Numbered from the stretch's first letter, positions 37,867-41,717 are shown. The stretch is 64,000 nucleotides of DNA from Escherichia coli (GCF_965641715.1 NZ_OZ282453.1); one strand, 5' to 3'. The notes: a model not told the origin generated them from the sequence alone. Numbers and translations: made by a program.

Positions 37867-38718
37867 TTGAACAATATCCCCATATCTACTCAATGGACTT
37901 TAGACGCTACGGGTGAAGTTGGACGCTCATCAGTAAATTCTGTTTATATGATTATATGTCCTGCGACAGGCTCGAAAGGATCTGGTTTTTTAATAGATAA
38001 TGGGTTAATAGTAACGAACGAGCATGTTATCACTGGATGCTCTACAAATCAGATTTTCGCAATTTCAGCTTATGGACAGAAGATTCCAATTTCTCAAAAA
38101 TGGATAGATTCTGATCGCGATTTAGCTGTGCTGAGACCTGCCATTACCCAGACTGGTGGGCTAAGTATTGTTAAGGATAATGATCTTAAAGTTGGTGAAT
38201 CAGTAACAACTTGGGGATACCCATTAGGATACAACGGTCCTGCACCGTTACTATCCGTTGGTTATCTAGCAGGATTTAACTCATACCAAACCGCCAAGGG
38301 ACAAAAAAAACATCTAGTGGTAAATGGGGCATTTAACTCAGGAAATTCTGGTGGAGCTCTTTTAAAAGCTTCAGATAATAAAGTAATAGGTATTGTAGTG
38401 AGTAAGCATGCTCCTATCAGTCAATACCATCAATCAGCTATTGAAGCTTTGTCTGAAAATATGAGTGGCGTCACCTATACCGCTACTAATGACGCTGGAG
38501 AAACTAAAAGTTTTGTAGAATCTCAAATTGTAGCAGAATTATTGATTCATATGAGAAGTCTAACTCAAGTTATGATTGGAGAAGCAATTGCAGCAGAGGA
38601 ATTACTTTCGATGCTTAGCGAAATTGACTTGAGTCCACCACAATCTATGTCAAGAAATGCCTTATGTCATTGCGGGAGTGGAAAACGCTTCAAAGAATGT
38701 CATGGAAAGATATCCTAG
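37867..38718 (+). CDS. AT-rich cargo: trypsin-like (S1/chymotrypsin fold) serine protease with C-terminal SEC-C zinc-binding motif
   Basis: TTG start with strong aaaggag RBS 7 nt upstream; catalytic-triad-like TNEHV / DLAVL / GNSGGAL; C-terminal CHCGSGKRFKECHG (38662..38703). Confidence 0.65.
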   Translation: MNNIPISTQWTLDATGEVGRSSVNSVYMIICPATGSKGSGFLIDNGLIVTNEHVITGCSTNQIFAISAYGQKIPISQKWIDSDRDLAVLRPAITQTGGLSIVKDNDLKVGESVTTWGYPLGYNGPAPLLSVGYLAGFNSYQTAKGQKKHLVVNGAFNSGNSGGALLKASDNKVIGIVVSKHAPISQYHQSAIEALSENMSGVTYTATNDAGETKSFVESQIVAELLIHMRSLTQVMIGEAIAAEELLSMLSEIDLSPPQSMSRNALCHCGSGKRFKECHGKIS

Positions 38719-38956: not shown

Positions 38957-38983
38957 AAAAAATAAGCCCGTGTAAGGGAGATT
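38957..38983. repeat. attR core aaaaaataagcccgtgtaagggagatt (matches the 27-bp P2 att core as recalled), overlapping cyaR 3' end
   Basis: Direct repeat with attL; identity to remembered P2 attP core. Confidence 0.75.
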
Positions 38984-39043
38984 ACACAGGCTAAGGAGGT
39001 GGTTCCTGGTACAGCTAGCATTTTATGGGTTATGTTTTTCAGC
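38957..39043 (-). ncRNA. cyaR: CyaR (RyeE) Hfq-dependent sRNA
   Basis: Reverse complement reads GCTGAAAAACATAACCCATAAAATGCTAGCTGTACCAGGAACCACCTCCTTAGCCTGTGTAATCTCCCTTACACGGGCTTATTTTTT, matching remembered CyaR. Confidence 0.75.
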
Positions 39044-39077
39044 GAAGCGGATGATAACCTTAATAAATGCAGCTGTA

Positions 39078-39127: not shown

Positions 39128-40489
39128 TCACTTACCGTGGGGGTTACGCGTGGTTTCCCCGGAGAAATTACGCATCAGCAGCGCGTAATTTAGCTCAAGA
39201 TCCTGCGGCACCGGGAGCCACACAGTATAACCATCGCCTGGTGCTATCGGCATAGCTTCGCCTTTGGCGTTTTCCATGTGCTCAAGGGTAAAGTTAATGT
39301 TGCCTTGCGGCGTCATCAGCTCAAGGCTGTCGCCAACGGAGAATTTATTTTTCACCGCTACCGCCGCGAGGTCCCCCTTGCGCTCACCGGTAAACTCACC
39401 AACAAACTGCTGGCGGTCAGAAACCGAATAACCGTATTCGTAGTTCTGATAATCGTCGTGAGTATGACGACGCAGGAAACCTTCGGTATAGCCACGATGC
39501 GCCAGACCTTCCAGAGTTTCTAGCAGGCTGGTATCGAACGGTTTGCCCGCAGCGGCATCATCGATAGCTTTGCGGTAAACCTGTGCGGTGCGTGCGCAAT
39601 AGTAGAAAGATTTAGTACGGCCTTCGATTTTCAGCGAATGCACGCCCATTTTGGTCAGGCGTTCTACATGGGCGATGGCGCGCAGATCTTTCGAGTTCAT
39701 GATGTAAGTGCCGTGCTCATCTTCAAACGCGGTCATATACTCGCCCGGACGCTGGGCTTCTTCGATCATAAACACTTTGTCGGTTGGCGCGCCGATACCC
39801 AGCGTCGGCTCAACATTTTGCACCGGAATCGGCTCGTACTTGTGTACGATGTTGCCAACATCATCTTCTTTCCCTTCCTGGACGTTGTACTCCCAGCGGC
39901 AGGCGTTGGTGCAGGTACCCTGGTTCGGATCGCGCTTGTTGATATAGCCAGAGAGCAGGCAGCGACCGGAGTAGGCCATGCACAGTGCGCCGTGAACGAA
40001 GATCTCGATCTCCATATCCGGCACCTGATTGCGGATCTCTTCAATCTCTTCCAGCGACAGCTCGCGAGAGAGGATCACGCGGGTCAGGCCCATTTGCTGC
40101 CAGAATTTCACCGTTGCCCAGTTTACGGCGTTAGCCTGCACCGAGAGGTGGATCGGCATTTCAGGGAAGTGCTCACGCACCAGCATAATCAGCCCTGGAT
40201 CGGACATAATCAGCGCATCCGGCCCCATTTCCACCACCGGTTTCAGGTCACGGATAAAGGTTTTCAGCTTGGCGTTGTGCGGTGCAATGTTGACCACGAC
40301 ATAAAACTTTTTCCCCAGCGCGTGGGCTTCATTGATGCCGAGCTGAAGATTTTCGTGGTTGAATTCGTTGTTGCGCACACGCAGGGAGTAACGCGGCTGG
40401 CCCGCATAAACAGCATCTGCGCCATAAGCGAAAGCGTAACGCATATTTTTCAGCGTTCCCGCCGGGGAAAGGAGTTCCGGTTTAAACAT
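39128..40489 (-). CDS. yegQ: Peptidase U32-family protein YegQ (TrhP)
   Basis: 453-aa ORF matching remembered YegQ; synteny. Confidence 0.85.
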   Translation of the reverse strand: MFKPELLSPAGTLKNMRYAFAYGADAVYAGQPRYSLRVRNNEFNHENLQLGINEAHALGKKFYVVVNIAPHNAKLKTFIRDLKPVVEMGPDALIMSDPGLIMLVREHFPEMPIHLSVQANAVNWATVKFWQQMGLTRVILSRELSLEEIEEIRNQVPDMEIEIFVHGALCMAYSGRCLLSGYINKRDPNQGTCTNACRWEYNVQEGKEDDVGNIVHKYEPIPVQNVEPTLGIGAPTDKVFMIEEAQRPGEYMTAFEDEHGTYIMNSKDLRAIAHVERLTKMGVHSLKIEGRTKSFYYCARTAQVYRKAIDDAAAGKPFDTSLLETLEGLAHRGYTEGFLRRHTHDDYQNYEYGYSVSDRQQFVGEFTGERKGDLAAVAVKNKFSVGDSLELMTPQGNINFTLEHMENAKGEAMPIAPGDGYTVWLPVPQDLELNYALLMRNFSGETTRNPHGK

Positions 40490-40591
40490 AATTCTCTCGT
40501 TCTGATGACAGGTCAGATCCGCTTCACCTGATGAAGCGGTTAGGGGAGTGCCCCCACTTTAAGGGCGGGCATTGTAGCGCAATCGGCGGGT

Positions 40592-40888
40592 TTAGCTCCA
40601 GTGTAAATGTCTGGTGGCGTCCTGGTTTTGGTTAAGGATACGAATGACGATAATTTCCCCTGGTGATTGCAGGAAATAAATTACGTGGCGTTCAAAAGGA
40701 AGAACAAAAATACCTTCGCCTAATTCAGGTCTGGGCGTACCTATATTATTGTTACTCAGAATCTGGAGAACGTCTGAAAGATGTTCCACATATCTGTCGG
40801 CTTGTGGTTCGCCGAAATGGTGATAACTGTAATACCAGATGCCTTCTAAATCTTCATTGGCTTTTGGCATGAGTTTAATAATACGCAC
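40592..40888 (-). CDS. ParE/RelE-superfamily toxin (98 aa)
   Basis: ParE-like pattern (EDLEGIWYY..., GTPRPELGEGIFVLPFERHVIYF..IIVIRILNQNQD); immediately downstream of antitoxin. Confidence 0.7.
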   Translation of the reverse strand: MRIIKLMPKANEDLEGIWYYSYHHFGEPQADRYVEHLSDVLQILSNNNIGTPRPELGEGIFVLPFERHVIYFLQSPGEIIVIRILNQNQDATRHLHWS

Positions 40889-40889
40889 A

Positions 40890-41141
40890 TTATTTCCTTA
40901 TCCCTGCTTTCACCTTCCGTAAAAACGCGTCCTTTTCCCACGGCTGAGCTTCACCACTACTCAACCCTTCTGCAAGCATGTCACGTAACGCTTGCAGGCG
41001 AGACTCTGCTTGCTTTTCTCGAAGTAAGCGCAGTGACTCACGGATCACTTCGCTTTGGGTGCGATAGTCGCCGGATTCAATTAAGGACTCGATAAATTCA
41101 CGCAACTCATCGCCGAGATCAACCGTCATCGTTCTGGCCAT
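40890..41141 (-). CDS. ParD-like (RHH/CopG-type) antitoxin (83 aa)
   Basis: N-terminal ribbon-helix-helix-like MARTMTVDLGDELREFIESLIESGDYRTQSEVIRESLRLLRE; upstream of toxin with 1-nt gap. Confidence 0.7.
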   Translation of the reverse strand: MARTMTVDLGDELREFIESLIESGDYRTQSEVIRESLRLLREKQAESRLQALRDMLAEGLSSGEAQPWEKDAFLRKVKAGIRK

Positions 41142-41384
41142 GTTTATGCTCTCCTGTAAGTAAAAATCTTACATCAGTGTATGTCATAAACCGGATAGCG
41201 TCACGAAAAGTATTAGAAGATATTTTGGCAGATGAACATGTTCAGGAGGATAAGCATGGAGATGTTAAACAAAGAAAGCACAATGAGTATTCATCAGTGT
41301 CCACTATTTTAATGGCGCAGGTAAATAAATAAGCGTTATTTGGAAATAAAGCCGGACGCCAACAATCCACGCCCGGCATCGTAA

Positions 41385-41717
41385 TTACGTATTGTCTTTC
41401 ACCGTCTGGCTTGTGCCATTGGCTTTAACGGAGGCAATTCCGGTTTCACGAGATTGCGCGGTGGCATACATCTGGCTGGAGCCGATAATTTGATGATTGG
41501 CGGCTTTCAGATTGAAATAGAATTTGCCGTTGCTTGCCGTTTTTTTCTCATAGCGTTCTTCTTGCGGGCTGTTGCTACGCACCGACGCGATGCCCTTTTC
41601 CGCAGAGGCTTTTGAAGTATACAGCTCGCTGGTGAGGATAGTCTCACCATTGCCCGCTTTTAGCACAAACCGGAACTGATTATCACTGCTCTTAGTGAGT
41701 TCAAACCAACCAGCCAT
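41385..41717 (-). CDS. yegP: YegP (UPF0339/DUF1508 tandem-repeat protein, 110 aa)
   Basis: Start at MAGWFELTKSS; two DUF1508-like repeats; synteny. Confidence 0.75.
   Translation of the reverse strand: MAGWFELTKSSDNQFRFVLKAGNGETILTSELYTSKASAEKGIASVRSNSPQEERYEKKTASNGKFYFNLKAANHQIIGSSQMYATAQSRETGIASVKANGTSQTVKDNT

Follow-up and report, generated by a model that had tools for sequence, protein, structure and literature searches.

The window, by which we mean the whole 64 000-nucleotide stretch of Escherichia coli DNA that was analysed (GCF_965641715.1 NZ_OZ282453.1), carries between yegP and yegQ (trhP) a pair of genes that is probably a functional chromosomal type II toxin–antitoxin (TA) operon of the ParD(PF03693)/ParE subfamily. 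The pair is a routine type II TA module, an uncharacterised member of the well-known ParDE family. It had been predicted from the sequence alone at positions 40592–41141; this location, the yegQ and yegP flanks and both open reading frames were correct to the base. The genes and their ribosome-binding sites (RBS), the latter read from the sequence, are listed below.

40890–41141, minus strand: parD antitoxin gene, 83 amino acids, ATG at 41141, TAA stop at 40892–40890.
40592–40888, minus strand: parE toxin gene, 98 amino acids, GTG start at 40888.
41151–41154, minus strand: GGAG, RBS of parD, 9 nt before the ATG at 41141.
40894–40899, minus strand: AAGGAA, RBS of parE, within the 3′ end of parD, 5 nt before the GTG.

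The parD gene comes first, and a single base (40889) separates its TAA from the GTG of parE. An RBS inside the end of the preceding gene is the usual coupling arrangement, and translation of parE would thus be coupled to that of parD. On the minus strand, BaeS and BaeR are encoded further upstream, YegP (110 amino acids, 41385–41717; DUF1508 profile match, 2.5e-45) upstream of the pair and YegQ/TrhP (NF011996 profile match, 875 bits) downstream. The cyaR locus and a P2-like prophage are found about 1.5 kb from the pair, beyond yegQ on its other side. The predicted prophage hotspot is therefore indeed nearby, but the pair itself is outside the prophage and is not part of it, because yegQ lies between them. 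A survey of open reading frames found no recombinase gene in the yegP–yegQ interval, there was no rep gene or iterons near the chromosomal pair, and neither the cassette nor the yegQ 5′ UTR matched an Rfam family.

The original prediction of a type II pair, with a probably RHH-type ParD placed first and a ParE-fold toxin after a 1-nt gap, was supported by profile searches, PDB matches and a fold search. ParD was matched by PF03693 (ParD_antitoxin; 69.2 bits, 4.3e-19; cut-off 21 bits) and by TIGR02606 (88.4 bits, 2.3e-25; cut-off 46.2 bits), a model named after the Caulobacter CC2985 antidote. The generic RHH_1 profile gave 18.6 bits, just under its cut-off of 20.5. ParD is 61% identical over 77 amino acids (E 1.9e-27) to PrpA of Pseudoalteromonas rubra (PDB 7YCS_D) and also matches the PDB sequences of VcParD2, CcParD1 and MtParD1. 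Its residues 1–53 align at 8e-18 with 7YCV, a crystal structure of the PrpA RHH fragment, and also with VcParD2. According to these homologue matches, an RHH DNA-binding part is probably present at the N-terminus and the toxin-binding part at the C-terminus.

Strain GF3-3 has an interval 100% identical to that of the window, and RefSeq calls its parD a ‘frameshifted’ pseudogene. The RefSeq reference ParD (WP_001307279.1) has 98 amino acids, with a start 15 codons upstream (MTYTDVRFLLTGGRK-MARTMTV...), and the window allele has one extra base within this 15-codon extension. In alignments with the solved homologues, the start at 41141 falls on their Met1. Since these homologues begin at the internal Met, and since this Met has its own RBS, the alignments identify the 83-amino-acid ParD as a real, intact product and the RefSeq frameshift as an annotation artefact. 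An annotation error is thereby exposed: the reference start appears to be 15 codons too early, and intact alleles therefore look frameshifted. The exact 83-amino-acid protein is on record on at least 1000 contigs, under the name ‘antitoxin ParD1’.

ParE is identical to RefSeq WP_001220181.1, whose product name is ‘RelE/ParE family toxin’. It was matched by PF05016 (ParE_toxin; 51.3 bits, 1.8e-13; gathering cut-off 23 bits), with 88 of the 89 profile positions covered, and by no NCBIfam model. All significant PDB sequence matches of both proteins were ParE/ParD pairs, and no RelE, YoeB or HigB chain was present among the PDB sequence matches of ParE at E < 1. The following chains were matched by ParE.

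7YCS, PrpT of P. rubra: 2.3e-12.
8C24, ParE1 of Mycobacterium tuberculosis: 5.8e-8.
3KXE, ParE1 of Caulobacter: 2.3e-7.
7R5A, ParE2 of Vibrio cholerae: 6.8e-7.

An AlphaFold2 model of ParE (mean pLDDT 86) has the layout β1-α1-α2-β2-β3-β4 (strands 3–6, 60–65, 68–75 and 78–86; helices 8–25 and 27–46), with the long α1–α2 hairpin typical of ParE. When this model was compared with the PDB using Foldseek, ranks 1–23 were all ParE toxins (TM 0.64–0.90), including PrpT (TM 0.87–0.90, rmsd 1.1 Å) and MtParE1, VcParE2 and CcParE1 (TM 0.83–0.88). RelE, YoeB and YafQ were found from rank 24 down (query-normalised TM 0.50–0.67, E 7e-4 to 1e-2). Because the top 23 are all ParE and the RelE-type toxins rank below them with lower TM, the model places the toxin in the ParE branch and not in the RelE branch. 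An aromatic residue, Phe25, is located in the α1–α2 loop, at the position of Trp25 of VcParE2; PrpT also has Phe there. In a 2025 preprint, Trp25 of VcParE2 is described as the key gyrase-contact residue whose replacement by Phe lowers toxicity. The C-terminus of ParE reads HLHWS*, and homologues in unrelated contexts (Pluralibacter, plasmids) end in RHL-x-W-x-stop.

The non-coding elements of the cassette and of its boundaries are given below.

41351–41377, minus strand: yegP terminator hairpin, upstream boundary of the cassette, flagged as terminator-like with the tail TTTATTTCCA.
41205–41350, minus strand: upstream spacer of the cassette, non-coding, beginning with the T-tract of the yegP terminator; absent from K-12.
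41176–41204, minus strand: putative parDE promoter, −35 GTGACG (41204–41199), 17-nt spacer, −10 TACACT (41181–41176).
41155–41173, minus strand: palindrome TGTAAG-N7-CTTACA (19 nt), putative ParD operator, between the −10 and the parD RBS.
40571–40599, minus strand: disrupted yegQ/trhP core promoter, −10 TACAAT (40576–40571) kept, GGAGCT at the −35 position (40599–40594).

The hexamers of the putative parDE promoter are the same in Escherichia and Pseudocitrobacter, and the spacer between them differs. The promoter scan did not flag this promoter because it scores only 8 of 12 consensus matches. The core of the palindrome arms (GTAAG/CTTAC) is invariant in E. coli, Escherichia whittamii, Pseudocitrobacter and Pluralibacter, with a variable spacer; the left arm in E. 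whittamii has C as its outermost base. The palindrome also stands upstream of plasmid-borne (L015/L016) and prophage-borne (L017) relatives. It is conserved in six independent contexts and in every relative examined. It is likely to be the ParD operator, its footprint being that expected for an RHH antitoxin operator. The upstream spacer contains no credible open reading frame and shows no similarity to Pseudocitrobacter; it differs among E. coli alleles, including by a 13-nt indel. The yegP terminator hairpin is common to K-12, where its tail is GCTTTACC, and the window. At the other end of the cassette, the GGAGCT found at the yegQ −35 position corresponds to the codons Trp-Ser-stop of parE. 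From the parE stop to the yegQ start (102 nt), the scan detected no promoter-like or terminator-like site on the minus strand.

These elements suggest the following mode of action. A weak sigma-70 promoter (GTGACG-17-TACACT) would drive a bicistronic parD–parE mRNA, with parE coupled over the 1-nt gap. A ParD dimer would bind the palindrome just downstream of the −10 through its RHH N-terminus and repress the operon, and the ParD C-terminus would wrap and neutralise ParE, as in the PrpA2:PrpT2 heterotetramer. Upon degradation of the labile ParD, free ParE would poison DNA gyrase, as do V. cholerae ParE2 and M. tuberculosis ParE1; replication would then be halted and the SOS response induced. 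Gyrase inhibition is established for these two toxins and for ParE of RK2, and by analogy with them ParE is expected to be a gyrase poison. The word ‘gyrase’ is absent from the PrpT/PrpA papers PMC7848731 and PMC9731233, and the target of PrpT is not given there. Little or no toxicity in E. coli has been described for some chromosomal ParE toxins (PMC6813445); the ParE of the window is presumed to be toxic. Transcripts started at the parDE promoter probably extend into trhP, as parE is not followed by a terminator. In occupied strains, this promoter would be a plausible source of yegQ/trhP transcription, because there is neither a terminator-like nor a promoter-like site between parE and yegQ and the −35 is gone.

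In a K-12 derivative, the yegQ–yegP interval measures 146 bp and contains no annotated gene, which agrees with the earlier expectation that K-12 would have a short, gene-free interval lacking the pair. Compared with K-12, the window has 770 bp (40581–41350) in place of 21 bp. Among the complete E. coli genomes, the interval was found in three states.

parDE present: 1843 of 5426 genomes (34%), one chromosomal copy each, 96.7–100% identical.
K-12-type empty site: 3182 of 5426 genomes (59% without the cassette).
Four-gene island (PcfJ, DUF1266 and DUF4034 proteins and a hypothetical protein): 298 of 5426 genomes, e.g. the B2 strains NU14 and ATCC 11775.

All 1843 copies are chromosomal and located between yegP and yegQ. 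RefSeq already annotates and names both genes. The coding 550 nt were ungapped in 39 of 40 occupied genomes sampled across the ranking, and one E. coli copy has an IS1 insertion in parE. The pair had been taken for a strain-specific insertion. It is an insertion with respect to the conserved enterobacterial baeR–yegQ arrangement, but with 1843 of 5426 complete genomes carrying it, it is common rather than strain-specific. In the island allele, both cassette ends persist: the initial part of the upstream spacer, following the yegP terminator, and the final 19 nt of parE. The island thus replaced an occupied allele.

Relatives outside E. coli were sought in a single scan of species-representative genomes, which gave three loci (E. 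whittamii, Escherichia sp. E1V33 and Pluralibacter gergoviae). E. whittamii has the same pair at the same site, with a toxin 95–96% identical. Escherichia sp. E1V33 has at this site a remnant consisting of the spacer and parE codons 56–98; the first part of the upstream spacer persists both in this allele and in that of NU14. The P. gergoviae homologue (69%) is located between alr and tyrB and is pseudogenised, the parD start codon being lost and parE frameshifted. In Pseudocitrobacter, assigned as such because the flanking YegQ/TrhP and BaeR are sequence-identical to Pseudocitrobacter proteins, the toxin is 80% and the antitoxin 92% identical, and the pair stands between baeR and yegQ, with no yegP. 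Relatives that are 60–69% identical occur on large plasmids of Klebsiella, Salmonella and Citrobacter, on contigs with plasmid-type genes, beside a Rep3-type rep gene and a recombinase, and in a Yersinia mollaretii prophage, beside lysis genes. These more distant relatives are mobile. A plasmid or phage origin of the chromosomal pair was considered and rejected, as no plasmid copy was more than 66% identical and the single phage match was partial. Two 99% ‘plasmid’ matches were records of 1.4 and 4.8 Mb and were taken as misfiled chromosomes.

The 21 nt that K-12 has in place of the cassette (GCTTTACCAGAGCCCCCCACA) make up the −35 element and spacer of a yegQ promoter, TTTACC-17-TACAAT. The TA-less species Enterobacter hormaechei, Kluyvera ascorbata and Atlantibacter hermannii have TTTAC[CT]-17-TACAAT before yegQ, and the promoter scan flags the yegQ promoter in K-12 and in Kluyvera. 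The −10 hexamer TACAAT and the 5′ UTR are kept in the window, E. whittamii, Pseudocitrobacter, E1V33 and NU14, all of which have GGAGC[TC] at the −35 position; where the copy is intact, these bases encode the Trp-Ser-stop end of parE. The junction GATTGCGCTACAAT is common to the occupied and occupied-derived alleles and absent from the empty ones. On the simplest reading of these comparisons, one old insertion landed on the yegQ promoter and replaced its −35 element, the empty allele of K-12 would be the ancestral state, the alleles of NU14 and E1V33 would be later losses from an occupied allele, and E. coli would be polymorphic, by presence or absence, for both old alleles. What marks the empty allele as ancestral is its promoter, which other genera have conserved as well, and the insertion can be regarded as old because the ‘empty’ sequence of K-12 is the yegQ promoter conserved in TA-less genera.

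Another origin considered for the 21 nt of K-12, a deletion scar of the parE 3′ end, was rejected, since the TA-less genera share the TTTAC[CT]-17-TACAAT promoter. In local alignments of these 21 nt, the match to the window was not significant, 1032 of 2000 shuffles scoring as well, and that to E1V33 was marginal (79 of 2000). Read-through into flanking DNA was likewise rejected as the source of the parE C-terminus: the RHL-x-W-x-stop ending is native to the toxin lineage elsewhere, and its presence in unrelated contexts indicates that this end was not captured from the flanks. Flanking repeats marking the insertion, which had been proposed as a check, were also looked for; short chance matches were the only ones observed, with no meaningful direct or inverted repeat or target-site duplication.

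Between the window and another E. coli allele, no non-synonymous and six synonymous differences were counted. The dN/dS values relative to E. whittamii are 0.03 (parD) and 0.09 (parE). In the comparison with Pseudocitrobacter, pN/pS is 0.05/0.74 for parD and 0.12/0.80 for parE, with synonymous sites saturated; the flanking genes baeS, baeR and yegQ have pS of 0.46–0.67, so that parD and parE are at least as diverged. These sequence comparisons show purifying selection on both genes and so speak against decay. The saturation of synonymous sites against Pseudocitrobacter indicates that the link of the pair to the yegQ junction is old. The idea of a recent insertion was accordingly abandoned, as E. 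whittamii and Pseudocitrobacter share the junction and synonymous divergence from the latter is saturated. Against E. whittamii, synonymous divergence of the cassette is below that of the flanks (0.15 vs 0.36 per site, p = 1e-5), and a tract of raised identity of about 1 kb covers parDE and the start of yegQ. The lower divergence of the cassette and this tract suggest that the allele may have moved between lineages by homologous recombination.

Four other explanations of the pair were weighed against a functional TA operon, and none is favoured. The pair could have been domesticated or attenuated, with a ParE that is no longer appreciably toxic and a cassette kept for ParD as a transcription factor or for the parDE promoter feeding trhP. 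The replacement of the yegQ −35 in every TA-bearing allele together with the missing terminator after parE, the occupation of one chromosomal site across genera, the low toxicity of several chromosomal ParE toxins (PMC6813445) and the regulation by PrpA, 61% identical to ParD, of DNA sites outside its own operon (PMC7848731) all fit this explanation. However, parE is itself under purifying selection (dN/dS 0.09; no non-synonymous difference in E. coli), which is unexpected if only ParD or the promoter mattered, and 59% of E. coli do without the cassette. We consider this explanation unlikely. In the case of decay, the pair would be the remnant of a lost mobile element and would have no present function. 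Pseudogenes do occur among the relatives, in Pluralibacter, and there are remnant alleles in NU14 and E1V33, an IS1 in parE of one E. coli and a ‘frameshifted’ call for parD in the identical GF3-3 allele. That call concerns the 15-codon reference extension, whereas the 83-amino-acid frame starts as the solved homologues do and has its own GGAG; moreover, dN/dS is low and length is conserved across 1843 genomes, which makes decay highly improbable.

It is nearly as improbable that the toxin is a ribosome-dependent mRNA interferase of the RelE type instead of a gyrase poison. Neither PF05016 nor the RefSeq name ‘RelE/ParE family’ separates the two activities, and the fold search did retrieve structures of RelE, YoeB and YafQ (E 7e-4 to 1e-2). 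Yet the top 23 structural matches are all ParE (TM 0.64–0.90, against 0.50–0.67 for RelE-type toxins), RelE, YoeB and HigB are missing from the PDB sequence matches at E < 1, the model has the long ParE-type α1–α2 hairpin, and the partner antitoxin is ParD, not RelB. A role as an abortive-infection, anti-phage module near the P2 integration site would agree with the distance of about 1.5 kb to cyaR and the P2-like prophage and with the general statement that phage defence is among the possible roles of type II TA systems (PMC7167474). It is as poorly credible as decay: PADLOC has no model that either protein matches, the prophage lies beyond yegQ, and genomes that lack this prophage, such as GF3-3, carry the pair as well.

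Among characterised systems, the closest solved relative of the presumed TA operon is PrpA/PrpT of the P. rubra plasmid pMBL6842 (7YCS/7YCU; PMC7848731, PMC9731233), whose antitoxin is 61% and toxin 33% identical. Both pairs combine a ParE toxin with a PF03693 antitoxin, have the antitoxin gene first and have Phe in the α1–α2 loop. PrpTA is carried by a conjugative plasmid, and PrpA also binds the origin iterons and thereby limits plasmid copy number (PMC7848731), whereas the present pair is chromosomal. It does not qualify as a copy-number controller of the PrpTA type, although its plasmid cousins (60–69% identical) do adjoin Rep3-type rep genes. V. cholerae ParDE2 (7R5A), M. tuberculosis ParDE1 (8C24) and C. 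crescentus ParDE1 (3KXE) have the same fold (TM 0.83–0.88) and a ParD of the same family, with an RHH N-terminus and a C-terminus that wraps the toxin, as in the present pair. Their toxins are only 26–31% identical and have Trp at the loop position where the present toxin has Phe; gyrase inhibition has been demonstrated for VcParE2 and MtParE1, and is supposed for the present ParE.

The archetype, ParDE of RK2, is also a type II, antitoxin-first system with an RHH antitoxin and a gyrase-inhibiting ParE, but its ParD belongs to another antitoxin family, PF09386 (PMC7848731), and it is a plasmid stability module. PaaR2-PaaA2-ParE2 of E. coli O157:H7 prophages (5CW7/5CZF) includes a ParE-fold toxin found in E. 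coli (TM 0.75). Unlike the present pair, it has three components and an unrelated antitoxin and is prophage-borne, with a toxin only 16–18% identical. ParDE-I (YacAB) of IncI/IncF resistance plasmids (PMC6614396) is another TA system of the ParDE superfamily in Enterobacteriaceae. Its authors put its identity to CcParE1 at about 15% (PMC6614396); this lineage is distant and is not the plasmid lineage related to the present pair.

No study of this yegP–yegQ parDE locus was found in a literature search. In their review, Fraikin et al. (2020) list what TAfinder predicts in four E. coli strains and emphasise the plasticity of TA insertion sites. This chromosomal ParDE is common in E. coli; as K-12 does not have it and no paper was found, it is missing from K-12-based coverage. 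It does not change how ParDE systems are thought to work, and about 1800 complete E. coli genomes already have it labelled in RefSeq. The features of wider interest are only the promoter replacement and the three-allele history. The site is a neat natural case of a long-standing TA insertion that segregates as three alleles (empty, occupied and replaced), and the removal of the trhP −35 by the insertion leads to the testable hypothesis that a TA promoter drives a tRNA-modification gene. We put forward, tentatively and with rather low expectation, that the cassette may have captured its neighbour, expression of trhP, which encodes the anaerobic tRNA U34 hydroxylase, having become dependent on the autoregulated, stress-responsive parDE promoter. 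If so, tRNA wobble modification would be tied to the state of the TA system, and clean loss of the cassette would be penalised, which would be a means of TA fixation on the chromosome other than post-segregational killing. Such a dependence might also explain why the two alleles that lost the cassette secondarily, the island of NU14 and the deletion of E1V33, have both kept the 3′ tail of parE.

Window positions 40281-41181 were compared with the corresponding locus of E. whittamii (L006). In a tract some 1 kb long, which takes in parDE and the opening 200 nt of yegQ, the two were 95-97.5% identical, versus roughly 85-93% in most parts of its flanks. Synonymous divergence was 0.15 per site in the TA genes and 0.36 in the flanks (p = 1e-5). 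The raised identity of the tract, together with the low synonymous divergence of the TA genes, hints that the occupied allele was exchanged between lineages.

A different allele was found at the yegP-yegQ site in 298 E. coli genomes:

L009 17768-23094 (E. coli NU14): four-gene island of 5.3 kb, standing in place of the parDE cassette core in a B2 lineage

The island encodes a hypothetical protein and DUF4034, DUF1266 and PcfJ-domain proteins. Of the cassette, this allele keeps the initial part of the upstream spacer and the final 19 nt of parE. In one E. coli assembly (L013, 4001-4355), parE carries an IS1 insertion in its 3' end; the resulting toxin is 102 aa long and its C-terminus is changed.

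The annotation of parD was examined with the GF3-3 allele (L004), whose sequence is 100% identical to that of the window over the following segment:

40890-41186: parD and 45 nt upstream (counterpart, L004 12401-12698)

This parD is labelled 'frameshifted' by RefSeq because WP_001307279.1, the 98-aa reference protein, has its start 15 codons upstream of the one in all solved homologues. The 83-aa parD ORF is intact.

On the other side of the cassette, two elements precede yegQ/trhP:

40571-40599: yegQ/trhP core promoter region (L001, K-12 derivative, 2582-2610; also upstream of yegQ in L018, L020 and L023, from TA-less genera)
40490-40570, minus strand: yegQ 5' UTR, strongly conserved across genera

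The core promoter, TTTAC[CT]-17-TACAAT, is conserved and was found in E. coli K-12 and in Enterobacter, Kluyvera and Atlantibacter, all of them TA-less. Every allele that bears parDE or derives from one that did has the end of parE at the -35 position of this promoter. Three hairpins were predicted in the 5' UTR (MFE -27.4 kcal/mol, z = -2.2) and no Rfam family was matched there. The 5' UTR may be a regulatory leader.

The baeR-yegQ interval was also compared in other genera (L011/L012, L018-L023). In Pseudocitrobacter, Enterobacter and Kluyvera it has no yegP. In Atlantibacter, this interval spans about 900 bp; an unrelated 147-aa ORF was called there in L022 and no gene in L023. Judged from these sequences, the baeR-yegQ interval is a site of variation, and yegP itself looks like an accessory insertion. 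Kluyvera ascorbata carries a further pair:

L020 5436-6103: two genes between yegQ and yegS

One encodes an HTH_3/dnstrm_HI1420 protein of 113 aa, the other a 109-aa protein without a match in the domain search. The resemblance of this pair to a HigBA-type TA module suggests repeated arrival of TA modules in the yegQ neighbourhood.

Two features lie on the P2-like prophage side of yegQ:

38960-39045, minus strand: CyaR sRNA (Rfam RF00112, 100.7 bits)
37867-38718, plus strand: trypsin-like peptidase, 283 aa, last P2-like prophage gene before cyaR

CyaR is placed between yegQ and the prophage; K-12 has an ogrK/P2 remnant there. The peptidase, which may be prophage-borne defence cargo, bears a SEC-C-type Cys/His motif at its C-terminus and gave partial PADLOC matches to protease domains (RT-Protease_XI, 7e-21; PDC-M35A, 6e-13).
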